Shown here piece by piece: positions 2,434 through 64,000 of a stretch of 64,000 nucleotides of DNA. The stretch's first letter is position 1; each line of letters starts with the position of its first letter. The stretch spans positions 4,867 to 68,866 of the forward strand of contig JAEDCN010000009.1 of assembly GCA_016294105.1 (NCBI GenBank). The letters run 5' to 3'. Both the position numbers and the translations under genes were made by a program. Source of the DNA: Treponema sp. (GTDB taxonomy: Bacteria; Spirochaetota; Spirochaetia; Treponematales; Treponemataceae). The notes beneath the pieces are model-generated. The model did not search any database, was not told the origin of the DNA, and was given only the letters and a program-made list of their open reading frames with translations.

Positions 2434-3503
2434 TCGTTTATATTTGCAGGAATTGACTCATAATGAATTCCTGCAAAAGTCTTTAAGACTGCCTCAAATA
2501 TAATTTTTGCTCCATCACAAGGAACCGCCATCCCTATCTGTTTTCTGACAGATTCCTTGCTTCCCTCAAAAACATAGTTATCAGGGAAAGTTTGGAGTCT
2601 AGCACGTTCCCGATTCGTCAATGCTCTTGGCTCGCTCCAATGGTAAATATGAGTCCCCCCTCCTCCTGATCCGGTCACGGTATATGCAGGTTTACTAGGA
2701 TCGAGCCGTTTATAAATCTGACTAATTCTTGCACCACGGACATTCAATTTCAAATGGTCAGGAAGATTTGCTGTAAATGCATTCTCACCAGGTTTAATAT
2801 GATTAAGTCTCTCGACAACCTGAGCAGATTGCACCGTATACTCATTGTTACTTGCATTCTCCTGTATAGGGGGCTCATCAATAGCCTCTCTACATGTTTT
2901 CAAAACATATCCATTCGTACTGGGAACTTTGAAATCAAAAGGCAAATCATTTCTGATACCAATAATTATAACCCGATGACGAGCTTGGGGAATACCATAG
3001 TCTTCAAATTTATATAAATTGGGATAAATCTTGTATCCAGCAGCAATCATATCTGCCTTGATTTTTTCAAAAGCGGAACCTTCATTGGCACTTTTTAATC
3101 CTCCAACATTCTCCGCCAAGAACCATTGCGGTTGTTTATCTTTAAGCACTTTGATTCCATAGGAATACAATGGACCAAATTTTCCATTGATTCCCTTTTG
3201 TTCTCCAACCACACTAAAATCGTTGCAAGGAAAACCAAAAGCCAATGCGTCAATATCTCCGATATCATACAAACGGTTAAAATCAAGTTCTCGAATATCA
3301 CCACAAATAACAGATTCTGGTTTATCAGGGCAGATATTTCTGATATATGTCTGGCAAGTATCCTTATCATAGTCATTCGCCCATTGATGGATAATCTTAT
3401 AATCAGGATTACCTATTGTTGCTGTAATCGCTCCAAGCGCAAGGCCACCGGGGCCACAGAAAAGTTCGCCTAACCTAAATATCATTTGGTTTTGAAACCT
3501 CAT
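2430..3503 (-). CDS. DNA (cytosine-5)-methyltransferase
   Basis: 357 aa with the canonical m5C motifs: FCGPGG (I), GFPCNDFS (IV), ENV (VI), QARHRV (VIII) and GMAVP (X). Confidence 0.92.
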   Translation of the reverse strand: MRFQNQMIFRLGELFCGPGGLALGAITATIGNPDYKIIHQWANDYDKDTCQTYIRNICPDKPESVICGDIRELDFNRLYDIGDIDALAFGFPCNDFSVVGEQKGINGKFGPLYSYGIKVLKDKQPQWFLAENVGGLKSANEGSAFEKIKADMIAAGYKIYPNLYKFEDYGIPQARHRVIIIGIRNDLPFDFKVPSTNGYVLKTCREAIDEPPIQENASNNEYTVQSAQVVERLNHIKPGENAFTANLPDHLKLNVRGARISQIYKRLDPSKPAYTVTGSGGGGTHIYHWSEPRALTNRERARLQTFPDNYVFEGSKESVRKQIGMAVPCDGAKIIFEAVLKTFAGIHYESIPANINE

Positions 3504-3677
3504 CCAGTAGTTTGTTAAGGAAATGATTACATTTCCTTATATCCTCTCCTCTTGTTGTATGCCAAGATATGACATCGGCATACCTAAGAAACGGCATGGA
3601 TAAAACGTTTTCAAAATATATTTTACCGCAGTAAAAGTAGAGATACCATCATAAAAAAATCGAAATTCTATATACAT

Positions 3678-4055
3678 CTATACTTCCACATAAGCAAAGG
3701 ATTGTGGTGCGTACATTATATCAAAATCAGAAAGCTCTTTCTTCTGATTGTATTCTCGAGCAGAAGCTACCTTTATTGCAAAAGCATTTGCTCGGCCATG
3801 AAAATACTTGTCATAAAATTCTTGAGTTGTGCCTGCAAAATCCTTCGTCAAAGTCCACAATACAGCCGGAGAATCATTTAAAATTGTATCTATTTCAAAT
3901 TCTCCGATGACTTTTCGCTCAGGAGACGAGGAATATACAATTACACGCCTTACAGACTTGTCTTTAAAAACATTTTTTCGGAATTCATATTTTTTTGTTC
4001 CATCAAAAATCTTATGTGCATATTCAGGTTTAATCGACAACAAAACTGCCTTCAC
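3678..4055 (-). CDS. ASCH domain (PUA-like fold) protein
   Basis: 125 aa. The N-terminus MKAVLLSIKPEYAHKIFDGTKKYEFRK is typical of small prokaryotic ASCH proteins. Its start overlaps the stop of the upstream PIN-GNAT-PUA gene by 26 nt. Confidence 0.75.
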   Translation of the reverse strand: MKAVLLSIKPEYAHKIFDGTKKYEFRKNVFKDKSVRRVIVYSSSPERKVIGEFEIDTILNDSPAVLWTLTKDFAGTTQEFYDKYFHGRANAFAIKVASAREYNQKKELSDFDIMYAPQSFAYVEV

Positions 4056-5532
4056 TTTTCGTCTCCTCTAAAATAGTTTCAAATTGTGCTTTACTGATTT
4101 TTCTGAAACCTCTTGGTGCATCATTTATTCCATGGAGAATTTCAAGCTCTATCAATCTTTCCATAGTTACTCGTTTTGGGAATGAGTACACATATAGAAA
4201 ATTTACGACAAAAGGTCTTCGTGTAGAGTAATTCCACATTTCTTTTAATGAATTTTCAGAAAATACACTTCCACTAAGGCAATAATCTACAAATTCTGAT
4301 TCAGAAGAAAAAGACTCCCTTATGTCAGACACGACTCCTACTGTCGTAACAACACTTTTAAAATATCCACCAGTTCGATAGAAGATAAGAATATCTCCTT
4401 TTTTTGGATGTGGTGCGATAGCTCGTGAAACATAAACCTTGGCTATACCATTGCGATGAGGAGAGTCTTCTATAAAATCTTTTGGCGATTCCGTATTCAA
4501 TATAGAATCTGGTAGTAATTCTGTATGGTACTCAGGATAAATAGGGACTATAAAGGAATCTTGGGATTTAGATATGTATGGATAACTTTCTCTTATACAG
4601 TTGACGGAAAAGCTCGGAATGAAAGTTCTAACATATACATTCTCAGCCGCTTTCTTGCCCCAAAAAGTAAAACCCCATTTTTCCATGAGACTAATCAATC
4701 TTTTTTGTTCATCTCGCTTGTCATATATTGTGACATATATTTCATCAACTTTATTCTTTAAAGCATTGTCAAAAATAATCTTTAGAAATCGCTCTCCTAA
4801 TCTGAATCCATTGCTAATCACCTTAAAAGTACCGACTTTTAATCTTTTCTTTGGCTGAAATTGTGGAACTATATCTAGGTAGTTCTCATCGGTTCCTTCA
4901 ACCTTCAAATATAAAAAGGATAATAATCTTCCATTGTTTGAATTTACCGTTATATAAGCTTCATCATCATATTTTCTCAAAAACCAATTGTCAAATCCTT
5001 CATAGTCATCTTTAAGTGATTGAAAGAAAGTGTCATTTAAATCAATTTTAGCAAACTGGATTTTCTGAACATTAAGGACTTTATAATCCACAAGCTCAGG
5101 ATGCTCAGAATAAATCTTTTCCAGAAATTCATCTATGGTAAAAACTTTTTCGGAAATTTCCAATAGATCAGCTTTCTTATGAATTTTTTTATCTTCTGTT
5201 ATCAAGCTATCAACCCTATTAGAAAAAACTTCATTTAAAATTTGAGTATCTATCTTATCATTCTCATTTGTATCAATTTGCTGAGAGACTTTTAAAACTT
5301 GCTCACTCATAGGCGATGAATTTTCGATAATTTCATAACTCTGTAACTTAACTTTAAATGCTGAGACAGTATCAGAATTTGAATTTTTTAAAATTTCAGA
5401 AACAGTCAGATTATGAATAACTTTTATATAATGTCCTCTATCAAGCCATTTAAAAAGTGTGCCTATATCCTGATTTTTAATCTTAGAAGCTTCTCTGTGA
5501 ATTATAATATTAGTGTCAAGCAGTACTCTCAC
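4030..5532 (-). CDS. Three-domain fusion: N-terminal PIN-like nuclease, central GNAT-like acetyltransferase, C-terminal EVE/ASCH-like PUA-fold domain
   Basis: 500 aa with a GTG start preceded by GGGAGGTGA. The PIN-like part reads MRVLLDTNIIIH...LITEDKK. The GNAT-like core reads GERFLKIIFDNALKNKVDEIYVTIY...LMEKWGF. The PUA-like C-terminus reads GDILIFYRTGG...VVTTVGVV...RGFRKISKAQFETILE. Domain calls are by eye, with no HMM run. Confidence 0.6.
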   Translation of the reverse strand: MRVLLDTNIIIHREASKIKNQDIGTLFKWLDRGHYIKVIHNLTVSEILKNSNSDTVSAFKVKLQSYEIIENSSPMSEQVLKVSQQIDTNENDKIDTQILNEVFSNRVDSLITEDKKIHKKADLLEISEKVFTIDEFLEKIYSEHPELVDYKVLNVQKIQFAKIDLNDTFFQSLKDDYEGFDNWFLRKYDDEAYITVNSNNGRLLSFLYLKVEGTDENYLDIVPQFQPKKRLKVGTFKVISNGFRLGERFLKIIFDNALKNKVDEIYVTIYDKRDEQKRLISLMEKWGFTFWGKKAAENVYVRTFIPSFSVNCIRESYPYISKSQDSFIVPIYPEYHTELLPDSILNTESPKDFIEDSPHRNGIAKVYVSRAIAPHPKKGDILIFYRTGGYFKSVVTTVGVVSDIRESFSSESEFVDYCLSGSVFSENSLKEMWNYSTRRPFVVNFLYVYSFPKRVTMERLIELEILHGINDAPRGFRKISKAQFETILEETKSEGSFVVD

Positions 5533-5754
5533 AACTCACCTCCCATGGCAACTTCTACAATACCATCCTACCACACCCACTGTCCCATAGAATGACACAG
5601 TGATATATTTTTCTTACAAAATATACCGAGCATTATAATCAATAACCCGAGCCCTGACAATGAGAAGAATGGAGAAAATGAATTTTATTTATCACATTAA
5701 TCTTTGATTCAATGTAAGGTTATATGCAGATAATGGAGATTCCCTCCTCCCCCC

Positions 5755-5867
5755 AATCTTACACACGGTACTAGTGCAATCTTACACACGGTAAGATTGC
5801 CTTCTTACACATGGTAAGATTGGACTCTTACACATAGTAAGATTGGGCTCTTACACATGGTAAGATT
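5755..5867. repeat. Five tandem 23-24 bp iteron-like repeats, each containing the palindrome (AAT)CTTACACAYGGTAAG(ATT)
   Basis: Read directly. The copies are centred near 5765, 5788, 5812, 5835 and 5858. Copy 2 (5778-5798) is a perfect 8-bp inverted repeat with a 5-nt spacer (AATCTTAC acacg GTAAGATT). Copy 1 has a degenerate right arm. Confidence 0.9.
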
Positions 5868-5901
5868 GAGCGTGGAAATTATTGTGCAGGGAGATCAAGA
5901 A

Positions 5902-5984: not shown

Positions 5985-6323
5985 ATGAACAATAACTTGG
6001 GAAACACACTCGAAAGGATGCTCAAGGAACAAAACATGAGCCAAAAGGAACTGGCCCAAAAGGCAGCTGTTACTGAGGCTGCAGTCTCCCACTACATCAA
6101 GGGGGATCGCATTCCCCGTAGCACCACCCTAGGACTCATTGCAGGAGCCTTGGGGGTTACAGCAGGTTTTTTGCTAGGAGCAGGAGTTACTTCTGCCACT
6201 GCAGAAAAGAAAAAACAAACCTTTGAAGAAACAAAGGATATGCTCAAAAAGCACAGTGACAGCTTTACCCAGCAACAGCGACTGGAGCTTATTGGTATAT
6301 TGTCACAAGGAGGGCAGGAATGA
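5985..6323 (+). CDS. XRE-family helix-turn-helix transcriptional regulator
   Basis: 112 aa. The HTH_3-type segment is MSQKELAQKAAVTEAAVSHYIKGDRIPRSTTLGLIAGALGV. Confidence 0.85.
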   Translation: MNNNLGNTLERMLKEQNMSQKELAQKAAVTEAAVSHYIKGDRIPRSTTLGLIAGALGVTAGFLLGAGVTSATAEKKKQTFEETKDMLKKHSDSFTQQQRLELIGILSQGGQE

Positions 6324-37929: not shown

Positions 37930-38934
37930 ATGAATTTTGTTGAGGAAATGAAGAAAAAGGCCAGTGAATATCAGAACAGCCTCGTTCTTCCTGAAGGTGC
38001 CGAAGAACGCACTGTTATTGCTGCTGCCGCCATCGTAGCCGAAAAACTTGCAAAGGAAGTAATCCTTTTGGGCAAGGAGGCAGACATCAAGAAGACTGCC
38101 GACGGAAAGGGTGTAAGCTTGGAAGGAATTACCCTGATTGATCCAGAGAATTCTCCCTGGAACGATGAATTTGCCAAGGAATACTACGAGCTGAGAAAGA
38201 ACAAGGGTATGACCCCAGAGCAGGCTGCCACCGACATCAAGCACTTCCTGCGATTCGGTGCCATGATGGTTCGCTTGGGCAAGGCCGATGCAATGATTGC
38301 TGGTGCCCTTTCCTCCACCGCAGACGTTTTGCGTGCTGGTCTCACCATCATCGGAACAGCTCCCGGCATGACCACCGCCTCATCCTGCTTCGTTATGGAC
38401 ACCCACAATCCCAAGTGGGGCTCCAACGGCTTGATGATTTTCTCCGACTGTGCTGTTATTCCTCTGCCTTCTGCTACCCAGCTGGCAGACATTGCTGTTT
38501 CCGCCGCTGATTCCTGCCGCCAGATGATTGGAGCAGAGCCAGTTGTAGCCATGATGTCCTTCTCTACAAAGGGCTCTGGTGGTAAGAACGAAAACGTGCT
38601 CCGTGTACAGGAAGCTGTAAAGCTTGCCAAGGAAAAGGCTCCCGACTTGTTGCTGGACGGTGAATTGCAGGCTGATGCCGCACTGATTCCTGATGTAACA
38701 GAGAAGAAGGCTCCAGGTAGCCCCATTACTGGTAAGGTAAACACCCTCATCTTCCCTGACTTGGGAGCAGGAAACATTGGATACAAGCTGGTACAACGCC
38801 TTGCTGGTGCTGACGCTTACGGTCCCTTCCTTCAGGGATTTGCTAAGCCCATCAGTGACCTGTCTAGAGGCTGTTCCGCCGACGACATCGTTGCCACTGC
38901 AGCTGTTACCCTGGTACAGGCCGGTAAGAAATAA
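37930..38934 (+). CDS. pta: Phosphate acetyltransferase
   Basis: 334 aa. LVLPEGAEERT, then MMVRLGKADAMIAG, DCAV and GANILIFPDL-like segments. Confidence 0.92.
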   Translation: MNFVEEMKKKASEYQNSLVLPEGAEERTVIAAAAIVAEKLAKEVILLGKEADIKKTADGKGVSLEGITLIDPENSPWNDEFAKEYYELRKNKGMTPEQAATDIKHFLRFGAMMVRLGKADAMIAGALSSTADVLRAGLTIIGTAPGMTTASSCFVMDTHNPKWGSNGLMIFSDCAVIPLPSATQLADIAVSAADSCRQMIGAEPVVAMMSFSTKGSGGKNENVLRVQEAVKLAKEKAPDLLLDGELQADAALIPDVTEKKAPGSPITGKVNTLIFPDLGAGNIGYKLVQRLAGADAYGPFLQGFAKPISDLSRGCSADDIVATAAVTLVQAGKK

Positions 38935-38990
38935 AGTTTCCGGGCCGGTAAGAAATAAAGTTTCCGGGCCGGTAAGAAATAAAACTTCCG
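38919..38990. repeat. Three tandem 24-bp copies of GGCCGGTAAGAAATAAAGTTTCCG; the first contains the pta stop codon
   Basis: Read directly. Copies lie at 38919-38942, 38943-38966 and 38967-38990 (2 substitutions), with a partial fourth copy after them. Confidence 0.95.
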
Positions 38991-39055
38991 AGCTGGTAAA
39001 ATATTTTATTAGTAAAGAAAGAATAAATTATCCTAGCCAGTTAAGCTGAAAACCA

Positions 39056-52375: not shown

Positions 52376-52425
52376 AATGGAGTTAAAACTACTAAAGTTA
52401 GTTTAGAAAAATGTACCAGGCTGGC

Positions 52426-53697
52426 TTAGAAAATTGTACCAGCTGGAATTATTGCATTCTTCCGGATAATGATGATTCCATTAGAAGTGAAGAACTCCCC
52501 ATGTTCACCGTCTTCATATACCTTGCCATTTACACCAATCTGACAGTTATCACCAATGTGAGCGTTCTTGTCTATGATTGTATTGGCAATCTTACAGTTG
52601 CGACCAATTCCCAAGTGAGGAATACCCCGCTCTGCAGCAAGCTTCTTCTGCTCCTCGTTTTCGTAGCTGTCGGCACCCATACAGATAACACCGTTCAACT
52701 CAGTACCACCTTCGATTATGGTACGTACACCGATAATGGAGTCGTTGATGACAGCATCGGTAATAACACAACCTTCTGTGGCCAAGGAACGGTTCATCTC
52801 TGCTCTGTTCAGCTTGGAAGGAGGCAGATTACGAGGATGGGTATAAATGGGCTGATCCTCATCGTAGAAATTAAATTTAGGATTAATGCGGGTAAGATCA
52901 AGATTTGCATCATAGAAGCTACGGATGGTTCCGATATCCTCCCAATAGCCGTTATAGATGTAGGACTGTACCTTTGACTTCTTGATGGCCATAGGAATGA
53001 TTTCCTTACCAAAATCAGTAAAGTCATTGTCCAAGGCTGCACGCATGGTATCAGCATTAAAGATGTAAATACCCATAGAAGCCAAGTAATCCTTGCCTTC
53101 GGGCAGACCATCACGTGCATTTTCAGGAATCTTCCAGTCATCAATGTTCAAATCAGCAGCAGGTTTTTCCATAAAGGCTGTAATACGCTGCTTTTTGTCA
53201 ATCTTCATGATACCAAAGCCAGAAGCATCCTCACGATTTACGCAGGTGGTGGCAATAGAAATATCTGCACCAGAAGCAATGTGCTTGTCCAAGAAAGCCT
53301 TCAAGTCCATGCGATACAACTGGTCGCCAGAAAGGATAATATAGTGGGTGGGATTTTGGGTTTCAAAGTGAACAAAGTTCTTGCGAACAGCGTCAGCAGT
53401 TCCCTCGTACCAACCAGAATGCTCCAAGGTCTGCTCTGCTGCCAAAATCTCAACAAAACCGTGGGTAAATCGGTCAAAGTTGTATGCCTTGGAAATATGC
53501 ATGTGCAAGGATGCAGAGTTAAACTGAGTCAAGATATAAATCTGACGGAAACCTGAGTTGATACAGTTTGAAATTGGAATGTCAACAATTCTATGCCGAC
53601 CACCAAAGGGTACTGCAGGCTTGGAACGTTCCTTTGTCAAGGGATATAGACGAGTTCCCTTTCCGCCACCAAGAATAATTGATAAGACCTTTGCCAT
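52426..53697 (-). CDS. glgC: Glucose-1-phosphate adenylyltransferase
   Basis: I prefer the ATG at 53697 (MAKVLSIILGGGKGTRLYPLT), after GGAGG. There is a left-handed beta-helix C-terminus. Confidence 0.92.
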   Translation of the reverse strand: MAKVLSIILGGGKGTRLYPLTKERSKPAVPFGGRHRIVDIPISNCINSGFRQIYILTQFNSASLHMHISKAYNFDRFTHGFVEILAAEQTLEHSGWYEGTADAVRKNFVHFETQNPTHYIILSGDQLYRMDLKAFLDKHIASGADISIATTCVNREDASGFGIMKIDKKQRITAFMEKPAADLNIDDWKIPENARDGLPEGKDYLASMGIYIFNADTMRAALDNDFTDFGKEIIPMAIKKSKVQSYIYNGYWEDIGTIRSFYDANLDLTRINPKFNFYDEDQPIYTHPRNLPPSKLNRAEMNRSLATEGCVITDAVINDSIIGVRTIIEGGTELNGVICMGADSYENEEQKKLAAERGIPHLGIGRNCKIANTIIDKNAHIGDNCQIGVNGKVYEDGEHGEFFTSNGIIIIRKNAIIPAGTIF

Positions 53698-53901
53698 ATT
53701 ACCTCCGAAATTACTTACAGCACACACAAGAATTTCCTCCCCACAGGAAATTGAGGTTAACTTGGGCCCCAATTCAAGCTGATTCAACAATTACTCTTCT
53801 TGCGTTATTGTATCAGTATAAACCTCTTAGGCAGAAAATGCAATTAAATTTTTATACAAAAAAAAACCTCCAAAATCACAAGGATTTGGAGGTTGAAAAG
53901 A

Positions 53902-56569: not shown

Positions 56570-57649
56570 CTAGCCCATACGTGGAGCATCTGCCCTAGAG
56601 GTGTCTACAGTAAGTCCTGCTGCTGCAGCAAGAGGAGCCAGCATACTTGGAGCTGTAGTGTTTTCCTCGCTGATACAGCGCTTTCCCGGATAGATGGCAT
56701 ATTTTTTCTTGCAGTCATCAGGAGAAAAATTAGGCATTACCACGTTGGCTCCCTGCATCAGGGCATCAAGACGATAATCTCTGTCCATGCTCCCCAAGGC
56801 AGTAGTGGCGGGAATCCAGGCTTCGGGCAGCAATAGGCGAGCAAGCGATACCGTTCTCAAGGTCAAGTCTACACTTCCCGCTTTTTCATTACGAAAAGGT
56901 GTGTCGGGATGGGGAATAAAAGGACCAATTCCCACCATATCGTATCCCTTTTCTGCAAAAAAAAGCAGATCCTTTACTATGTGGCTTGTTGTTTGACCAG
57001 GAACACCAATCATCAGGCCGCTTCCTGTTTGGTAGCCCAAGGATTGCAAGGTGTCCAGACACTGGATGCGAGTTTCAACCTGCCGCCCCTGATGCAAGGA
57101 AGCGTAGAGCTCAGGATCGCTGCTTTCAATTCGTAACAGGAAGCGGTCTGCTCCAGCTGCCTTCCAACGGCGGTAATCTTCTGCACTCCGTTCCCCCACA
57201 GACAGGGTGATGGCAAGATTGGGATGGGCAGCCTTAACGGAACGAAGCACCTCCTCCAAAAACTCAGCCCTTGTTCCATCTTCCCCTGACTGAAGCACCA
57301 TGGTACCGATTTGGGCATCACAAATGGCGCTGGCACAACTTAAGATTTCTTCTTTGGTAAGCCGATACCGTTCAGCCCGTGGATTCCCCCGATTCAAGCC
57401 ACAGTACAGGCAGGTATTACCACAATAGCTGGAAAATTCCACCAATCCCCGCACAGCAAGCCGTGGCCCACACCAGCGGTTTCTCATGTCCACTCCAGCT
57501 TGAGCCAGCTGAGACAATGCATCTTGATCTTGAGTCTCCAAAAACCAGATAATGGCAGAGGTAACAGCTTCCTTTTGGGAAGGAAGATGCCCCTTTCTGC
57601 ATTCCTGACCGTATGTAATGATGGTATCAATAGCTTGTTGAACCTTCAT
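56570..57649 (-). CDS. hydE: [FeFe]-hydrogenase maturase HydE (radical SAM)
   Basis: CGNTCLYCGL radical SAM motif on a BioB-like scaffold. I prefer the ATG at 57649 (MKVQQAIDTI), which forms an ATGA overlap with the hydF stop. Confidence 0.85.
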   Translation of the reverse strand: MKVQQAIDTIITYGQECRKGHLPSQKEAVTSAIIWFLETQDQDALSQLAQAGVDMRNRWCGPRLAVRGLVEFSSYCGNTCLYCGLNRGNPRAERYRLTKEEILSCASAICDAQIGTMVLQSGEDGTRAEFLEEVLRSVKAAHPNLAITLSVGERSAEDYRRWKAAGADRFLLRIESSDPELYASLHQGRQVETRIQCLDTLQSLGYQTGSGLMIGVPGQTTSHIVKDLLFFAEKGYDMVGIGPFIPHPDTPFRNEKAGSVDLTLRTVSLARLLLPEAWIPATTALGSMDRDYRLDALMQGANVVMPNFSPDDCKKKYAIYPGKRCISEENTTAPSMLAPLAAAAGLTVDTSRADAPRMG

Positions 57650-58905
57650 TTTGCCTCCCGATAGGCTGCTAAAGCCTGTGGAAAGGGAGACAAACACCGT
57701 TCCAGCACTCCTGTAAGGGCGGCAATGGTCATACCATAGTTGGTGATGGGAACAGAAACTGCCGAGGCAGCTTCAATTCTATTGCCCATTTCCCGATTGG
57801 TCAGCATACAGCCACCACAATGGATAACCACGTCATATTCATTAAGATTGTGAGGATAGTCCTTGCCATTACAATGGCTAATGGTCAAAGGTGCATTCTT
57901 AGTGTAGGAGGCAATCCATCGAGGAATCTTTACCCGGGCAATGTCGTCCTCGATGGAATGGTGGGTACAGGCTTCTGCAATAAGCACCCGATCCCCAGCC
58001 GAAAGCTTTTCGATTCTGGCTGCACCACGAGCTTGCTCCACCATATCCCCCTTGCTACGAGAAAGCAGAATAGAAAAGGTAGTACAGGGAATGTCTTCAG
58101 GACAGGCCTGGCAAATTTCCTTGGCCACCTGGGAATCACACACCACCAAGCAGGGCGCCTCAGCAAGAGCTTTCAAAGTGGCAGAAAATTCCTGGGGTTG
58201 GGTTACCACCGCAACACCATGGCCATCCAAGGCCTCTCGAATGGCCATCACCTGAGGCATAATGAGTCGTCCCTTAGGAGCCTCACTGTCAATGGGAGCA
58301 ACCAAAACTACTAGTGGCAAGCCTTCAACATGTTCCAGTAAGTCCAAGAGCAGTGGCGGCTTTTTCGTTTCAGCCTTTGTTACCTGGGCAACAAGGTTCG
58401 TGAATTCCTGCAACACCCGCTGCCTCTCTTCAGCAAGCTGCTGAGCCTTGTGGCAGGAAAGGGGCAAAATCCCCGCCGCCTTTTTGGCAAGAGTCTCCAT
58501 TTCACCCTGCTCAAGAGGATGTAGATCAATCTTGTTGCGAAGAATCAGCAAGGGAGTGGAGGTTTTCTTGCAGGCAGCTGCCACAGCTTGTGCCTCCTCT
58601 CCCCATTCACCAGTATCCACCACCAAAACTGCCACATCCACTGCCTTCAAGGCCTTTTCTGTGGCAGCTATACGATGAGGTCCCAAAATTGAAGTATCAT
58701 CCAAGCCTGCAGTATCTACCAAAATGACAGGTCCCACAGGAGGAAGCTCCATGTTTTTTTCCACAACGTCGGTGGTGGTTCCAGCCTGCTCCGATACAAT
58801 GGCCGTTGACTGACCAGTAAGCAGGTTTAACAGGCTGGACTTTCCCGTATTGGTCTTACCAAAAAATCCGATTCGTAATCGCATGGATTTTGGTGCTTGT
58901 TCCAT
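57646..58905 (-). CDS. hydF: [FeFe]-hydrogenase maturation GTPase HydF
   Basis: G1 motif GKTNTGKSS, plus DTAG and NKID. The C-terminal Cys/His cluster region reads CTHH...HCGGC. Confidence 0.88.
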   Translation of the reverse strand: MEQAPKSMRLRIGFFGKTNTGKSSLLNLLTGQSTAIVSEQAGTTTDVVEKNMELPPVGPVILVDTAGLDDTSILGPHRIAATEKALKAVDVAVLVVDTGEWGEEAQAVAAACKKTSTPLLILRNKIDLHPLEQGEMETLAKKAAGILPLSCHKAQQLAEERQRVLQEFTNLVAQVTKAETKKPPLLLDLLEHVEGLPLVVLVAPIDSEAPKGRLIMPQVMAIREALDGHGVAVVTQPQEFSATLKALAEAPCLVVCDSQVAKEICQACPEDIPCTTFSILLSRSKGDMVEQARGAARIEKLSAGDRVLIAEACTHHSIEDDIARVKIPRWIASYTKNAPLTISHCNGKDYPHNLNEYDVVIHCGGCMLTNREMGNRIEAASAVSVPITNYGMTIAALTGVLERCLSPFPQALAAYREAK

Positions 58906-58914
58906 TCCTTCCCC

Positions 58915-60330
58915 CTAGAACCGGAAATCCCGCTTTCCTCGCATTCCCTCTTGAAGGTAATTTTCAGCCAAACGACGAACCTTCAAGTCAGGAATCCGGA
59001 ACAATTCCTTTGCAATAAGCTGGGTTCCAATGGACTTTGTTTCCGCAGAAGCATAATCCTCCAAATACTCCTGCAGGGTAATCAGTGCATTGGGATGGCA
59101 GCAGTTACCAATTTGACCAGATTTTACTAGCTCCATAAATCGGTCTCCCGTTCGGCCTGCCCGATAACAGGCTGTACAGAAGCTAGGAACGTATTTTTGC
59201 TCCATAAGCCAACGGACGATTTCATCCAAGGTTCGAGTATCGCTTACATCAAACTGGGCAGTCTCATCATGGCGCTCCTCCTGGGTATAGCCACCAACAC
59301 TGGTGCGGGAGCCACCGGAAATCTGGGAAACACCTAAACGCATTACCCGCTCCCGCACAGCCTGGGACTCACGGGTAGACACAATCATTCCAGTATAAGG
59401 CACCGCTAAGCGGATAATGGTAACAATCTTAGCAAAGGTATCGTCATCAATTCCGTTGGCAAAGGAAGAAGCATCGATTCCATCTGCATCACGAATTCGA
59501 GGTACACTGATGGTATGAGGCCCCACACCCTTAGCTGCTTCAAGGTGCTCTGCGTGCATCAGCAAGCCCACCAAATCATAGCGATACAGGTTCAAGCCAA
59601 AAAGCACTCCAATACCCACATCATCAATGCCACCGTCCATGGCTCTATCCATGGCTTCTGTATGCCAGTCGTAATTGCTCTTGGGACCAGTGGGATGGAG
59701 CTTTTCGTAGGTTTCCTTGTGGTAGGTTTCCTGGAACAGGATATAAGTTCCAATTTCCGCCTCGTGGAGCATTCTGTATTCTTCCACCGTAGTAGCGGCA
59801 ATGTTCACGTTTACACGACGGATGGCACCATTTTTGTGTTTAACAGAATAGATGGTATTAATACTTTCCAGAATATATTCAATGGGATTGTGCTTTGGAT
59901 CCTCTCCGGCTTCCAGTGCAAGTCGTTTGTGTCCCATATCCTGCAGGGCAATAACCTCTCGCCGAATATCTTCCTGACTCAGCTTGACGCGGGGAATAGT
60001 TTTATTGCTTCCGTGATAAGGACAATAGGTACAGCCGTTAATGCAATAATTTGACAAGTACAAGGGAGCAAACAAAACAATTCTGTTGCCATAGATTCTC
60101 AGCTTTAATTCCTGGGCGATATTTTCCATGGCTGTGTTCAAGTCGTCCTGGTCACACTCCAGCAAAACAGCTGCTTCCCGATGGGTCAATCCACCGCCTT
60201 TGCGAGCCTTTTCAAGAATGTCTCCAATAAGCTGGCGATCAGACTTGTGGGCACTGGCCCATTCCAAGGTGTCTAAAATTTCCTGATGGTCAATAAATTC
60301 CTGAGCATGAGGTGAAGCTACATTATACAT
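58915..60330 (-). CDS. hydG: [FeFe]-hydrogenase maturase HydG (radical SAM tyrosine lyase)
   Basis: 471 aa with CINGCTYCPY on a ThiH-like core. The C-terminal extension carries CTACYR...GNCCHPN. Confidence 0.9.
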   Translation of the reverse strand: MYNVASPHAQEFIDHQEILDTLEWASAHKSDRQLIGDILEKARKGGGLTHREAAVLLECDQDDLNTAMENIAQELKLRIYGNRIVLFAPLYLSNYCINGCTYCPYHGSNKTIPRVKLSQEDIRREVIALQDMGHKRLALEAGEDPKHNPIEYILESINTIYSVKHKNGAIRRVNVNIAATTVEEYRMLHEAEIGTYILFQETYHKETYEKLHPTGPKSNYDWHTEAMDRAMDGGIDDVGIGVLFGLNLYRYDLVGLLMHAEHLEAAKGVGPHTISVPRIRDADGIDASSFANGIDDDTFAKIVTIIRLAVPYTGMIVSTRESQAVRERVMRLGVSQISGGSRTSVGGYTQEERHDETAQFDVSDTRTLDEIVRWLMEQKYVPSFCTACYRAGRTGDRFMELVKSGQIGNCCHPNALITLQEYLEDYASAETKSIGTQLIAKELFRIPDLKVRRLAENYLQEGMRGKRDFRF

Positions 60331-60340
60331 ACATCACCCC

Positions 60341-60592
60341 CTATACCTTTGCCAAGGTAGACTTTACAGTTACATTGGACAATTGTCCAACCTTTCCAGT
60401 AAGAGAACCGATTTCGTCAGTGGTTGCATCCACAATTAAGGTGATGATGTTTAAATCACGTTCTTGATAGGGAATCCCCATACGCCCAATGATAATGTGT
60501 CCAAACTGACTGAGAATGTCATTAAGCTGCTTGGAAGACCCTTCCCGATTTTTCACAATAATGGCAATTACGCCTACATTGCGTTCACTCAT
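60341..60592 (-). CDS. Small ACT-like protein of the TM1266 type (putative iron-only hydrogenase system regulator)
   Basis: I prefer the ATG at 60592 (MSERNVGVIAIIVKNREGSSKQLNDILSQFGHIIIGRMGIPY...), after GGAGG. It lies immediately upstream of hydG. The track's 146-aa version adds an unlikely N-terminus. Confidence 0.7.
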   Translation of the reverse strand: MSERNVGVIAIIVKNREGSSKQLNDILSQFGHIIIGRMGIPYQERDLNIITLIVDATTDEIGSLTGKVGQLSNVTVKSTLAKV

Positions 60593-60790
60593 AAATACCT
60601 CCAAAATCGCTGGAGGCCTGATGATATGGGGGCACGATGCACCAGAATGCAAAATGCATGAGGTGCTTTCTTTTTGTACGCTCCCCTTGGCTTCAAAGTA
60701 CAAATACTTCTGACCGCAGGCACAACGATATATAAAGATACTACTCTTTTTTAAAGAAAGATACAAGTCTTGAAAATACAAAAAACACTA
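60593..60790 (-). promoter_or_regulatory. Structured 5' leader of the ACT-hydGFE operon with an RBS-sequestering hairpin
   Basis: In minus-strand RNA, CCUCCA (60616-60611) can pair with the UGGAGG Shine-Dalgarno sequence (60603-60598). Further upstream lie hairpins GCACC...GGTGC (60639-60666) and TTTGTAC...GTACAAA. I recognise no known riboswitch consensus. Confidence 0.4.
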
Positions 60791-60794
60791 TTCT

Positions 60795-60820
60795 AAAAAA
60801 ACCCCGCCAATAGACGGGGC
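60795..60820 (-). terminator. Rho-independent terminator following the repeat array
   Basis: On the minus strand: GCCCCGTC tatt GGCGGGG followed by T7. Confidence 0.7.
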
Positions 60821-60825
60821 ATTTT

Positions 60826-61090
60826 AGCTTCAGCTTGCTAGTTGAGTTTCTACCGCTTTATTTATTTAATGCGGTAGAAACGTCAGGACGCAAGCTGTCG
60901 CTTGCTAATGGAGTTTCTACTGCCTTATTTATTAAGGGCGGTGGAAACATCAGGACGTAAGCCTTCGGCTTACTAGTTGAGTTTCTACCGCTTTATTTAT
61001 TTAATGCGGTAGAAACATCAGGACGCAAGCCTTCGGCTTACTAGTGGAGTTTCCACTGCTTATTTGCTAAGGGCAGTGGAAACATCCACG
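60826..61090. repeat. Four tandem ~67-bp structured repeat units; the last unit contains the 3' end and stop codon of the GGGtGRT gene
   Basis: Units start at about 60826, 60892, 60959 and 61027. Each has a short hairpin (AAGCC ttc GGCTT; variants AAGC tgtc GCTT and AGCT tc AGCT) and a long hairpin (GTTTCTACCGC ...13-14 nt AT loop... GCGGTAGAAAC; the last unit has GTTTCCACTGC...GCAGTGGAAAC). Confidence 0.95.
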
Positions 61091-62070
61091 GCGACGGCAA
61101 CGGTGGCACCAACCATGGGGTTGTTTCCGATTCCCAAGAATCCCATCATTTCTACGTGGGCAGGAACGGAAGAAGAACCTGCAAACTGAGCATCAGAGTG
61201 CATTCTTCCCATGGTATCGGTCATGCCGTAGGAAGCAGGACCTGCGGCCATGTTGTCGGGGTGCAAGGTACGACCAGTTCCACCACCAGAAGCAACGGAG
61301 AAGTACTTCTTGCCCTTCTCTACACATTCCTTCTTGTAGGTACCAGCTACAGGGTGCTGGAAGCGAGTGGGGTTGGTGGAGTTACCAGTAATGGAAACGT
61401 CAACTCCCTCGTGCCACATAATGGCTACACCTTCACGAACATCGTCTGCACCATAGCACTTTACCTTTGCACGGTTACCCTTGGAGTAAGGAATCTCCTT
61501 TACAACCTTCAGCTCACCAGTGTAATAGTCAAACTGGGTCTGTACATAGGTAAATCCGTTGATACGGCTAATAATCTGAGCAGCGTCCTTTCCAAGACCG
61601 TTCAAGATACAACGCAGGGGCTCCTTACGTACCTTGTCTGCCTTGGCGGCAATCTTAATAGCTCCCTCAGCAGCAGCAAAGGACTCGTGACCAGCCAAGA
61701 AGGCAAAGCACTTTGTCTCTTCCCGCAACAAACGAGCAGCCAGGTTTCCGTGACCCAAACCAACCTTGCGGTCTTCGGCTACAGAGCCAGGAATACAGAA
61801 GGCCTGCAAACCAATTCCGATTGCTTCAGCAGCATCGGCAGCGTTCTTGCATCCCTTCTTGATGGCAATGGCAGCACCAACAACATAGGCCCACTTTGCG
61901 TTTTCAAAACAAATGGGCTGTGTTTCCTCTACAGTCTTGTAGGGATTGATGCCAGCCTTGTCACAAATATCCTTAGCCTCTTCAATAGAAGCGATTCCGT
62001 TTTCATTCAACGCCTTGTTGATCTTGTCGATGCGGCGCTCATAGCTTTCAAATGTAATCTTATCTGCCAT
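61060..62070 (-). CDS. GGGtGRT-family protein (function unknown)
   Basis: 336 aa containing the family-defining SGGGTGRTLHPDN segment. Confidence 0.85.
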   Translation of the reverse strand: MADKITFESYERRIDKINKALNENGIASIEEAKDICDKAGINPYKTVEETQPICFENAKWAYVVGAAIAIKKGCKNAADAAEAIGIGLQAFCIPGSVAEDRKVGLGHGNLAARLLREETKCFAFLAGHESFAAAEGAIKIAAKADKVRKEPLRCILNGLGKDAAQIISRINGFTYVQTQFDYYTGELKVVKEIPYSKGNRAKVKCYGADDVREGVAIMWHEGVDVSITGNSTNPTRFQHPVAGTYKKECVEKGKKYFSVASGGGTGRTLHPDNMAAGPASYGMTDTMGRMHSDAQFAGSSSVPAHVEMMGFLGIGNNPMVGATVAVAVDVSTALSK

Positions 62071-62085
62071 TTTCTCACCTCCGCC

Positions 62086-62787
62086 TTACTCGTGCCGTGG
62101 GTCAATCAGCTTCACAGCACCATCTTCTGGAGTGGTGCGGCCATAAGAACCACGAGCCTTTTCCATAGCTGTGGCAGGATCGTCGCCCTTCTTGATAAAG
62201 TCCATCATCTTACCAAAGTGGATGAACTTGTATCCGATAATGGCGCCTTCCTCATCAACGGCAACCTGCTCAACATAGCCTTCTGCCATCTCAAGGTAAC
62301 GGGGACCCTTCTTCAAAGTGGCAAACATGGTTCCAACCTGGGAACGCAGACCCTTTCCAAGGTCTTCCAGAGAGGCACCAACTACCAGACCACCCTCACT
62401 GAAGGCAGACTGACTGCGACCATATACAATCTGCAGGAACAGCTCGCGCATAGCAGTATTGATAGCATCACAAACCAAGTCAGTGTTCAGAGCCTCAAGA
62501 ATAGTCTTTCCGATGAGGATCTCAGAAGCCATTGCAGCAGAATGGGTCATTCCAGAACAACCGATGGTTTCTACCAATGCTTCCTGAATGACTCCTTCCT
62601 TAACATTCAAAGTCAACTTACAAGCACCCTGCTGGGGAGCACACCAACCCACACCATGAGTAAAGCCAGAAATGTCCTTCACTTCCTTTGCCTGCACCCA
62701 CTTTCCTTCCTGGGGAATGGGAGCTGGTCCATGATAGGCGGACTTAACCAGTGGACACATATGCTCCACTTCTGTTGAATACACCAT
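62086..62787 (-). CDS. NifU/IscU-like iron-sulfur cluster scaffold-domain protein (the usual partner of GGGtGRT genes)
   Basis: 233 aa. The Cys positions (WCAPQQGAC...GCSGMTHSA) are arranged as in NifU-N-like domains. It lies directly upstream of the GGGtGRT gene. Confidence 0.7.
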   Translation of the reverse strand: MVYSTEVEHMCPLVKSAYHGPAPIPQEGKWVQAKEVKDISGFTHGVGWCAPQQGACKLTLNVKEGVIQEALVETIGCSGMTHSAAMASEILIGKTILEALNTDLVCDAINTAMRELFLQIVYGRSQSAFSEGGLVVGASLEDLGKGLRSQVGTMFATLKKGPRYLEMAEGYVEQVAVDEEGAIIGYKFIHFGKMMDFIKKGDDPATAMEKARGSYGRTTPEDGAVKLIDPRHE

Positions 62788-62964
62788 AGATTTTCTCCTC
62801 GAAAAATTGAAGAATATGTTCCTTTTTGGAACTGTAGCATTATACCATATATATACCCTAAAAGCTAGTATCCAAGAGTTAATATTCTATATTTTCATAT
62901 CTAATTGCATTTGACAGACTATTTTCTTTCGTGTTAGTCTGTAAAAAATCATTTTGGAGGAAGA

Positions 62965-63402
62965 ATGAAACAAAAAATTTTTATTATTTTGCTACTTTTT
63001 TTCACTTTGTACCTTGGAGCCCAGAGTAATTCTAGCCAGCAATTTACCATAGGAGGAACAGGTCCTGCAGGAGGCACCATCTTTGCCATCTCCAAGAATT
63101 TTGTCTGGGAAATGAGCGAGCCTTTGGGCCACATGACCTGGGACAAGGCCTTCAAATCCTGTCCCCAATATCAGGGAGGAGGCTACACTGACTGGTACTT
63201 GCCCACCAAGGATGAGTTGGAAAACATGTACTACAACGTAATAAAGCCAGGTCTTGTAAAGGACCACGAAGCCTATTGGTCATCAAATCAGGAAGAAAGC
63301 ATGGCATTGTGGGGCTACAACTTTAAAAAAGGTCGTCCAGGATTGTATGGTGCTGCAAAAAAATTAGCAGTCAGAGCGGTGAGATGCTTTTCAATCCAAT
63401 AG
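62965..63402 (+). CDS. DUF1566 (Lcl C-terminal-like) domain secreted/lipoprotein
   Basis: A signal peptide, then GGYTDWYLPTKDELENMY...YWSSN...AVRCF, typical of DUF1566. Confidence 0.75.
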   Translation: MKQKIFIILLLFFTLYLGAQSNSSQQFTIGGTGPAGGTIFAISKNFVWEMSEPLGHMTWDKAFKSCPQYQGGGYTDWYLPTKDELENMYYNVIKPGLVKDHEAYWSSNQEESMALWGYNFKKGRPGLYGAAKKLAVRAVRCFSIQ

Positions 63403-63515
63403 CATCTCTGTTGCTTTCAAATTTAACTGCATCGGCAATGCTTCCAAATCCATCAACATCGCTGGTGTTTTAAGTTAAACCTACTACAGATACTTTTTAT
63501 GATTTAAAATGAAAA

Positions 63516-63580
63516 AGGGCTGTTTGGTGGAAAGCTTCATGAAGAATCTTCACAAAGTTTTCACCACAGCCCTTTTTTAT
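63516..63580. terminator. Long imperfect hairpin with flanking A/T runs, a bidirectional terminator
   Basis: AAAAAGGGCTGT..GGTG...CACCACAGCCCTTTTTT. Confidence 0.65.
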
Positions 63581-63613
63581 TTAGCCTTCGATTACTTGTT
63601 GAAGTAACCTACC

Positions 63614-64000
63614 CTAGTCTTTTGCTTCAACAACTTGTCCTAACATGGTATCAAGCATAATCAAGCAACGTGGCACGTGGAAGGGTCCCTTAAAGGTACT
63701 TCCCTTGGTAGAAGGCATGGTAGGCTTGCCATCACGGCGCAGATAGCCATACCACTCTCCATATTCAGGATCGCAGAAGTACTGCTTGCAGTAGTCCACA
63801 ACCTTATTAAACCAATCAAGGTATTCCTGACGGCCAGTATCACGATAAATCATCAAGCTGGCAATAAGCATTTCGTTATGAGGCCACCACAGCTTCATAT
63901 CATGCTCATAAGCTTCAGGAGGATTGCCAAGACAATCAGTAAAGTACAGGAGTCCCTGATACTCATTGTCCCAACCGCCCTTTGCAGCCCAGTCAAAGAT
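63614..64000 (-). CDS. N-acylglucosamine 2-epimerase (AGE)/cellobiose 2-epimerase family protein, C-terminal part (gene runs off the window end)
   Basis: I checked by hand that the frame stays open from 63898 to 64000 (..WDNEYQGLLYFTDCLGNPPEAYEHDMKLWWPHNE..). KLWWPHNE and the FKGPFHVPR blocks are AGE-family features. Confidence 0.8.
   Translation of the reverse strand: MFDWAAKGGWDNEYQGLLYFTDCLGNPPEAYEHDMKLWWPHNEMLIASLMIYRDTGRQEYLDWFNKVVDYCKQYFCDPEYGEWYGYLRRDGKPTMPSTKGSTFKGPFHVPRCLIMLDTMLGQVVEAKD

Follow-up and report, generated by a model that had tools for sequence, protein, structure and literature searches.

The locus examined here raises the question of what a row of similar repeats is doing at the end of a GGGtGRT protein gene in a Treponema sp. 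genome, and in particular whether the repeats act in the mRNA of that gene or are a by-product of how DNA recombines there. The window, which is the whole stretch of DNA that was analysed, is 64,000 nt long. The host gene and its neighbours are as follows.

61060..62070, minus strand: GGGtGRT protein gene, 336 aa (open reading frame list; Pfam PF14057, E 1e-196).
61062-61060, minus strand: stop codon TAA of the GGGtGRT gene.
62086..62787, minus strand: NifU-like gene, immediately upstream of the GGGtGRT gene (weak match to Pfam NifU_N).
About 60341..60592, minus strand: TM1266-like putative iron-only hydrogenase system regulator (PF21699).
58915-60330, minus strand: HydG-like radical SAM gene with Radical_SAM and BATS domains (PF04055, PF06968).
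57646-58905, minus strand: HydF gene (HydF domains).

The NifU-like gene sits 5' of the GGGtGRT gene at the related loci examined and is probably the first gene of a two-gene operon that has the array at its end. The TM1266-like gene, called as 83 aa in public contigs (L001-L010), lies outside the element, since array lineages elsewhere (L149-L158) have other downstream genes. An identical copy of the GGGtGRT protein was present on 23 public contigs, and the best genome matches were Treponema sp. MAGs from the guts of water buffalo and other ruminants (L011, L012). GGGtGRT proteins are highly expressed in vivo in gut anaerobes and are among their most abundant proteins (PMC11204068), they are included in rumen metaproteomes (PMC7035244), and the GGGtGRT/NifU pair of B. 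thetaiotaomicron is strongly iron-regulated, being 11-13-fold lower under iron depletion (PMC10434189). High expression of GGGtGRT and iron regulation of the NifU/GGGtGRT pair make a stabilised transcript plausible.

Four head-to-tail units of 67-68 nt were found downstream of the GGGtGRT stop codon, with a canonical terminator after the last of them. Tandem Repeats Finder reported the array at 60828-61086 with a period of 68, 3.8 copies and 80% matches, and also a second period of 135 with 1.9 copies and 89% matches, so that the latest expansion duplicated a two-unit block. A repeat search gave four copies, spaced by 67, 68 and 68 nt, with inverted arms of 11-15 nt in all units. A covariance model, itself built from the array units, placed them on the minus strand at 61020-61086, 60952-61019, 60885-60951 and 60814-60884, and a hairpin pattern had three matches plus the gene-proximal variant compared with none in 100 shuffles. 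These results bear out the four tandem units of about 67 bp that had been recognized in a sequence-only reading of the window. The units and the terminator are listed below.

61020..61086, minus strand: unit 1, gene-proximal (covariance model match of 82 bits; sequence read directly).
60952..61019, minus strand: unit 2 (repeat search; covariance model match of 89 bits).
60885..60951, minus strand: unit 3 (covariance model match of 74 bits).
60826..60884, minus strand: unit 4, distal (repeat search; covariance model match of 59 bits at 60814-60884).
60794..60820, minus strand: intrinsic terminator, GCCCCGTCTATTGGCGGGG followed by T7 (terminator scan).

Each unit, read on the mRNA, consists of GAY, a long hairpin, the linker CUC(A/C)A(C/U)UAG, a short hairpin and GUCCU. 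The long hairpin has 10-12 bp and, in the window units, 11-12 bp with a loop of UUA-AGC/AAU-AAA-UAA; a folding program lengthens its stem by 2-5 pairs across a one-base bulge, and this extension draws on the Asp codon GAY and an invariant UC 3' of the stem. The short hairpin is predicted to be very stable and has 6-7 bp and a loop of GAA, GAAA or GACA, and its versions in the window are GTAAGCC-GAA-GGCTT(G/A)C and GCAAGC-GACA-GCTTGC.

The array derives from the 3' end of the GGGtGRT gene, as had been proposed, and the gene-proximal unit holds the true end of the reading frame. The 5' arm and loop of unit 1 are the last codons of the gene, GTT TCC ACT GCC CTT AGC AAA TAA. Its long-hairpin arms, at 61073-61083 (coding GTTTCCACTGC) and 61049-61059 (GCAGTGGAAAC), are 11 nt each and 100% complementary, which agrees with the 11-bp hairpin described earlier, and the loop contains L, S, K and the stop codon. 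The short hairpin of unit 1 (61025-61041) reads GTAAGCC-GAA-GGCTTGC on the mRNA. In unit 2 the arms are at 61002-61016 and 60981-60995 with the core GTTTCTACCGC/GCGGTAGAAAC, the reading is DVSTALNK-stop, and the short hairpin (60957-60973) is GTAAGCC-GAA-GGCTTAC. The long hairpin of unit 3 is formed by arms at 60937-60948 and 60913-60924, and on the mRNA two of its positions are C-A mismatches; the short hairpin, at 60890-60905, is GCAAGC-GACA-GCTTGC. Unit 4 has a complete long hairpin (arms 60867-60881 and 60846-60860), and its short hairpin is cut off at the junction with unique DNA (60826-60838). On the minus strand each distal unit gives D V S T A L N K stop, in agreement with the VSTALNK-stop noticed before. 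The earlier reading was correct that the short stem varies between units; its boundaries needed correction, to 6-7 bp, and its supposed AGCT/AGCT variant is only the truncated junction of unit 4. A small open reading frame on the plus strand (60835-60960, 41 aa) was treated as spurious; it lies wholly inside the units, and its length would track copy number.

The terminator that follows the array, also predicted from the sequence, has an 8-bp stem on the minus strand (60820-60801) with seven T after it, and its position is constant in all strains of the window lineage, whatever the unit number. The units are transcribed with the gene, since in every lineage they fall between the stop codon and the intrinsic terminator; this is the place that the earlier suggestion of a multi-hairpin 3' untranslated region calls for. 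The units were considered as intrinsic terminators in their own right, and this was rejected because they are followed by CUCAACUAG and not by a U-run. The terminator scan found no minus-strand terminator inside the array; the sole match to the terminator consensus there is on the plus strand at 61042-61058, antisense to the mRNA.

Conservation of pairing was assessed in an alignment of 23 distinct full units, with both helices counted (19 pairs). Standard pairs occupied 92.5% of cells compared with 76.1% in column shuffles, none of 500 shuffles reached the observed value, and pairing fell to 30-43% when partners were slid by 1-3 columns. Double-sided changes were present in 14 of the 19 pairs, although the units are related by descent and these counts are not independent events; the most variable pair, columns 9-34, occurs as UA, AU, CG and GC. 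Compensatory changes thus keep both hairpins, as the first reading had claimed on much weaker evidence. Short-hairpin stems differ wholly among units and lineages (GTAAGCC, GCAAGC, ATACACC, AGTCGGT, GTACGCC and ACAGCGCAGC), and such complete turnover between conserved flanks would be hard to obtain without a constraint on pairing. Seven gene-proximal stems (GTTTCCACTGC, GTCAGTACAGC, GTTTCTACCGC, GTTTCAACTGCC, GTTGCGACTG, GTTTCAACTGTT and GTTAGTACAGTT) are each perfectly complementary over 10-12 bp and all encode V-S/A-T-A/V; their variants include a switch of serine codon, from TCN ACY to AGT ACA. In all array lineages the stop codon is in the loop and the 3' arm begins 0-2 nt past it. The perfect stop-spanning stem has 10-12 bp in array lineages but does not exceed 6 bp either in the 101 other GGGtGRT loci compared (L055, described below, apart) or among 58 other open reading frames of the window. 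Across the 23 units, conservation was higher in loops and flanks than in stems.

These patterns have to be weighed against a neutral origin at the DNA level, in which the quasi-palindrome at the gene end promotes replication slippage and unequal crossing-over, tandem duplications are gained and lost, the array has no function, and the arms stay complementary because the copies are young and because intramolecular template switching at quasi-palindromes rewrites one arm on the pattern of the other. We regard this explanation, the main rival, as possible though doubtful. Without selection the short hairpin would be expected to decay, but it is instead replaced by different 6-10-bp stems between conserved flanks; the stop-spanning stem stays perfect through synonymous changes that include the TCN/AGY serine switch; and loops and flanks are more conserved than the stems. 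The hairpin is, nonetheless, not always kept, as units with mismatched arms (L152 unit 1, L009 unit 2 and window unit 3) indicate, and such chimeric units are what a neutral process would leave. In L152 unit 1, a 5' arm of one type is joined to a 3' arm of another with four mismatches and the proximal hairpin is disrupted. The departures are smaller, one or two C-A mismatches per unit, in window unit 3, L002 unit 2 and L009 unit 2. The mismatched units look like recombinants between unit types.

Folding of the array gave -141.7 kcal/mol (z -13.9) for the mRNA strand and -144.8 kcal/mol (z -13.0) for the opposite strand, in both cases far more stable than shuffled sequence. The two C-A positions that had been taken as a weak hint of a functional plus-strand transcript are indeed present in the unit at 60885-60951, but the hint itself did not hold. 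Over the 23 units, raw counts gave 13 departures expected to form G-U in the mRNA and 13 expected to form G-U in an antisense transcript (G-U and A-C types, respectively), and removal of alignment artefacts and shared events left about 6 vs. 5. The equal folding of both strands and the absence of a G-U/A-C strand bias do not demonstrate a role as sense-strand RNA over a hairpin at the DNA level, and wobble-type departures without strand bias fit the neutral explanation. GNRA-type tetraloops and C-GAA-G loops are unusually stable, and their complements UUC and UUUC are not. The GAA, GAAA and GACA loops of the short hairpin on the mRNA-sense strand are the only pointer and favour, if anything, the sense strand, although loop type does not separate RNA from single-stranded DNA.

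Comparison of strains with the identical protein showed that the array expands, contracts and reshuffles by unequal recombination. Among ten such contigs the distance from the stop codon to the next gene was 265, 332-333, 399-401 or 467 nt, corresponding to one, two, three or four units, while the terminator and downstream promoter region remained collinear. Unit order also differed, being a-b-c-b in the window, a-c-b in L004, a-c-b-b in L002 and a-b-a in L003. Between L003, with three units, and L008, with one, identity is 100% across both 984 nt of the gene and the 1200 nt downstream. All of the related sequences are short-read metagenome assemblies, in which tandem repeats can be collapsed or made chimeric, and the single unit of L008 could be an assembly collapse because units 1 and 3 of L003 have about 50 identical bases in common. 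The differing orders and contents across independent assemblies, including four NCBI MAGs, cannot all be artefacts. The array is a recombination hotspot, as the sequence-only reading had allowed, insofar as nearly identical strains differ in how many units they have and in what order, and such differences in otherwise identical sequences are also what slippage without function predicts.

Two further tandem repeats that include a stop codon were found in the window.

38919-38999: pta tandem repeat including the stop codon, 24 nt x 3.4.
52403-52446: glgC tandem repeat including the stop codon, 23 nt x 2.

The pta repeat is polymorphic, with 1-4 copies between strains, and the two repeats indicate that duplications of this kind are common and tolerated in this species, again in keeping with a neutral origin. 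Like the array, they are arranged head-to-tail and their first copy is the real gene end. Their 'hairpins', however, arise only from short self-complementary words (CCGG, CCAGCTGG) in tandem, and unlike the array they have no covariation and no second hairpin.

Arrays were also detected in more distant relatives. A second Treponema lineage, with 97% protein identity (P0004, Spirochaetaceae MAGs), carries homologous arrays ahead of the original gene end, and some of its units are 112 nt long with additional hairpins. The number of extra units in this lineage was as follows.

No extra unit: L149, L151, L153 and L157.
One extra unit: L152, L154 and L158.
Two extra units: L150 and L155.
Four extra units: L156.

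Strains with a single unit or without an extra unit indicate that the extra copies are dispensable, which is a further point for the neutral explanation. The upstream gene in this lineage differs from that of the window, and the downstream genes vary and include toxin-antitoxin-like genes. L156 ends its array with the same gene end and terminator that the array-less L017 has, so duplication has pushed the original gene end distally. At 92% protein identity, Treponema sp. UBA1240 (L015) carries a single full unit, whose stems are different (GTTGCGACTG/CAGTCGCAAC and ACAGCGCAGC/GCTGCGCTGT), and then a second copy of the gene end; in L180 (92%) the gene end recurs 170 nt downstream. The persistence of the architecture in L015, where the DNA has diverged, argues against neutrality. 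The array is restricted to these lineages. It is absent, with an ordinary terminator in its place, from the Treponema-like loci L014, L016 and L017 and the P0006, P0011 and P0015 lineages, and likewise from all Bacteroidales, Clostridia and other homologues examined; the unit is absent from about 100 other GGGtGRT loci.

One of the other loci, L055 ('Azospirillum sp. CAG:239'), repeats 49 nt of its gene end without a single difference and has an 8-bp stop-spanning stem. It was left out of the evidence as a single case with 100% identical copies and a possible assembly artefact. GGGtGRT homologues of 384-494 aa with higher scores were considered as extensions into the array and rejected; they are internal duplications with GGGtGRT-type tails of the expected length and no array sequence, and are most likely metagenome assembly chimeras.

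In the sequences searched for dispersed copies, the unit lay at this gene only. With filters off, the covariance model found just the four units in the 64-kb window, and in 94 related loci (537 kb) it found none outside Treponema GGGtGRT 3' ends. No Rfam family, the subject of another proposed check, matched at E up to 1 in window positions 58000-64000 or in five related arrays. A metagenome scan with the non-coding linker GCTTRCGTCCTGAYGTTTC returned 58 single matches, none of them unit-like or adjoining its hairpin and about half of them in one conserved coding sequence, so that the scan is uninformative on dispersal. No recombinase, integrase, transposase, cas or reverse transcriptase gene was present among the eight genes nearest the array, and no transposase among the 15 annotated proteins of the window, which include those eight. 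Because the unit is homologous to the last codons of GGGtGRT itself, local tandem duplication is the parsimonious origin.

The same searches bear on whether the units are a mobile or recombinase-related element, be it REP/MITE-like, attC-like or leftover att sites at the GGGtGRT 3' end. Such an element would fit the displacement in L156 of an original gene end, identical to that of L017, to the far end of the array, and the downstream genes, toxin-antitoxin-like ones included, that differ among strains of the 97% lineage. We nevertheless judge it extremely improbable, given that covariance model and pattern searches placed the unit nowhere else in the window or the 94 related loci, that the units are homologous to the last codons of the gene, that arms varying so freely offer no fixed recombinase site, that neither integrase nor transposase is encoded by the eight nearest genes, and that no unique DNA separates the units.

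Several specific assignments were rejected. Integron attC sites have conserved R''/R' core boxes (RYYYAAC ... GTTRRRY) at the stem base and an integron integrase nearby; the stem bases of the units vary (GTTTC...GAAAC, GTCAG...CTGAC, GTTAG...CTAAC), and the eight nearest genes include no integrase. Diversity-generating retroelements combine a variable repeat at the 3' end of a gene with a template repeat, both some 100 nt long or longer and differing from each other at adenines, and a reverse transcriptase gene lies nearby; the repeated coding part here is 24 nt, differences between units are compensatory stem changes and not adenine-specific, and the eight nearest genes include no reverse transcriptase. 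Operator sites for the TM1266-like regulator were dismissed because arm sequences vary among strains with the same proteins and because arrays are also present where that gene is not downstream. The MITE reading was rejected alongside the attC, retroelement, CRISPR and terminator readings.

We propose, with moderate confidence, that the array forms a structured 3' untranslated region with hairpins under selection for pairing, that this region stabilises the mRNA or directs its processing, and that unequal recombination makes it longer or shorter. We infer that the hairpins act as RNA and affect the stability of the message. The array would have originated by tandem duplication of the gene end together with its downstream hairpin, and RNA polymerase would read through one to four modules (elsewhere zero to four extra) before it meets the real terminator. 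A terminating ribosome would have to melt the first long hairpin, because the last codons are its 5' arm and the stop codon is in its loop, whereas the downstream copies would lie beyond the ribosome footprint; with the first hairpin opened by ribosomes and the others out of their reach, there is a simple reason why extra copies could help. The stack would most likely block 3'-to-5' exonucleolytic decay of the mRNA of an abundant protein, or define processing sites in it, and more units would make a more robust barrier to decay. Unequal or slipped recombination between units would also move alternative synonymous gene ends into coding position.

The position of the stop codon could also mean that the stop-spanning hairpin modulates translation termination, for example by pausing followed by cleavage or rescue, with the distal copies incidental. 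The placement of the stop codon and 3' arm that all array lineages share, described above, fits such a role, and in E. coli a REP element near a stop codon can make ribosomes stall, with cleavage of the mRNA as a result (PMC12306157). Down-regulation of so abundant a gut-anaerobe protein would have no obvious benefit, however, the same structure in distal units that are not translated would be left unexplained, and in L152 the proximal hairpin is disrupted, so that we consider this explanation very unlikely.

The units might have yet another use, as a platform for an RNA-binding protein or sRNA or as the source of a small RNA derived from the 3' untranslated region, in which case copy number would set the amount of factor bound or sRNA released. 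The loops (UUAA-N-AAAUAA) and single-stranded flanks (AC-UC-N-A, YUGAY) are invariant or nearly so in the 23 units while the stems vary, and a strong terminator directly after the last unit is the usual anatomy of 3'-UTR-derived sRNAs. Much of this conservation is explained, however, by the coding origin of the sequence (L-S/N-K-stop, Asp GAY) and the 2-5-bp stem extension. With no Rfam family and no partner identified, and with searches of the 64-kb window and of related loci totalling about 537 kb yielding no further copy, we think a platform or sRNA source quite improbable.

It is unlikely that the module is a cis-regulatory RNA of a kind not described before, dedicated to GGGtGRT transcripts in Treponema of the ruminant gut. 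In that case the hairpin that sequesters the stop codon may couple translation termination to the fate of the mRNA, and the invariant A-rich loops and flanks of the downstream copies may be where a protein or nuclease binds. The heritable, fast-changing copy number may tune an abundant iron-related protein between strains, and the array may be a reservoir of synonymous gene ends exchanged by recombination.

If the stabilising or processing role is correct, a gene-specific 3' untranslated region of conserved structure and variable copy number would be a natural handle on how GGGtGRT expression is set in Treponema, and the near-isogenic strains with zero to four extra units would offer a clean test, provided by nature, of the number of stem-loops that an mRNA needs in bacteria. 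It would also mean that a REP-like array of 3' hairpins can arise from the end of a gene itself, without a mobile element. From the further polymorphic stop-codon duplications in the species, it seems that the 3' ends of genes are hot spots where tandem duplication is tolerated. If the neutral explanation is right, the array is mainly a caution for the assembly and annotation of such loci.

Among known systems, CRISPR arrays resemble the element in the regular spacing and partly palindromic nature of their repeats. CRISPR arrays have unique spacers, whereas here the full period of 67-68 nt repeats (80-93% identity) with no unique segment between copies, and no cas gene was found among the eight nearest genes; the earlier view that the array is not CRISPR-like therefore holds.

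The likeness to REP elements and BIMEs is closer. The palindromes of these elements are imperfect, lie in intercistronic DNA or in 3' untranslated regions, often stand in rows and are transcribed with the upstream gene, and the units of the array likewise form imperfect palindromes in transcribed DNA between a stop codon and a terminator. REPs are thought to evolve by gene conversion. They are present in hundreds of dispersed copies, whereas the array unit occurred at one gene only in the 64-kb window and the 537 kb of the 94 related loci. The REPs of a BIME alternate in orientation, whereas the copies in the array are all direct and head-to-tail, and REPs are linked to RAYT (IS200/IS605-like) transposases, of which there were none among the 15 annotated proteins of the array window. 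Unlike a REP, the array unit reproduces the end of a gene, namely its last eight codons with the stop, and has a second, separate hairpin. REP elements stabilise upstream mRNA (PMC12306157), which is the role proposed here for the array. In the cip-cel operon, intergenic stem-loops set transcript stability and cleavage (PMC10311766).

Stem-loops at 3' ends that act as stabilisers or processing signals form the other related class, and they share with the array stable hairpins without a U-tract that follow a highly expressed gene and precede a terminator, and that are expected to block 3' exonucleases or mark cleavage sites. Examples, besides the cip-cel stem-loops, are the 'positive retroregulator' of Bacillus thuringiensis cry and the intercistronic hairpins of Rhodobacter puf. 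The array has the stable, maintained hairpin in the transcript 3' of the stop codon that characterizes this class. The structures in those examples are single and fixed, whereas the array is built of modules that overlap the end of the coding sequence and whose number differs within one species. The array is a real, well-defined, lineage-restricted and rapidly evolving element that belongs to no described family and would work in the manner of REP-type or stabiliser stem-loops.

The four-unit array 3' of the GGGtGRT gene is not the only tandem repeat in the window that takes in the end of a gene. Two further examples, at the ends of pta and of a glgC-like gene, occupy the following positions (window coordinates):

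37930-38934, + strand: pta (phosphate acetyltransferase) gene
38919-38999: pta gene-end tandem repeat, 24-nt unit, 3.4 copies
52426-53790, - strand: glgC-like gene (glucose-1-phosphate adenylyltransferase)
52403-52446: glgC-like gene-end tandem repeat, 23-nt unit, two copies, 90% match

The 3' end of pta reads GCC GGT AAG AAA TAA, and these codons and the stop lie inside the 24-nt unit. Among contigs encoding the identical Pta protein (loci L181-L187), the repeat was present in 1, 2, 3 or 4 copies. The pta repeat is a second gene-end tandem repeat that varies in copy number in the same species as the array. The 23-nt unit of the glgC-like gene likewise includes the last codons and stop, and the palindromic word CCAGCTGG forms a 5-bp stem across that stop. 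In total, a stop codon was contained in three of the seven long-period tandem repeats of the window.

The homologous arrays of the lineage with 97% protein identity (L149-L158) are mosaics rather than simple copies. The second units of L155 and L156 were 112 nt long; an inserted segment of 44 nt gave them two additional hairpins (CAAGTTTTGT/ACAAAACTTG and GAGTGG-GAA-CCACTC), and the stop-overlapping stem of the L155 second unit was a different one, of 7 bp (GCATTAT/ATAATGC). Genes 3' of GGGtGRT differed from strain to strain (locus positions about 2550-4011) and included HTH_3, a DUF4160 pair, PIN, LRR_5 and Lcl_C. The GGGtGRT gene end in this lineage adjoins a variable region in which toxin-antitoxin-like genes are abundant.

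Outside this lineage, a locus from the MAG 'Azospirillum sp. CAG:239' (L055), whose GGGtGRT protein was 85% identical, had its gene end, with the stop, repeated directly and without mismatch over 49 nt (3975-4100). The second copy lies 75 nt downstream of the first, and a stem of 8 bp bridges the stop codon. Either the same kind of duplication arose independently in an unrelated taxon, or the repeat is an assembly artefact. GGGtGRT identity was 82-90% between Treponema, Bacteroidales, Clostridia and one Succinivibrio MAG (L011-L090), an unusually high value across phyla that suggests strong constraint or horizontal transfer. Longer homologues in the protein database (384-494 aa; P0001-P0003, P0005, P0007, P0010, P0013, P0014, and P0025) had internal duplications of 50-160 residues; most likely they reflect chimeric assembly of this very conserved gene from metagenomes rather than real variation.

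Two other structured elements of the window lie between genes:

63507-63582: long hairpin with A-runs and T-runs on its flanks, between convergent Lcl_C-domain and GlcNAc 2-epimerase genes
5754-5868: five tandem 23-bp units between divergent genes, 5' of a Cro/C1-type HTH gene (5985-6323)

The hairpin is an ordinary bidirectional terminator; its Rfam microRNA match, on both strands, was at chance level. Each 23-bp unit is an inverted repeat (TCTTACACAYGGTAAGA), and the five together look like an array of operator sites.
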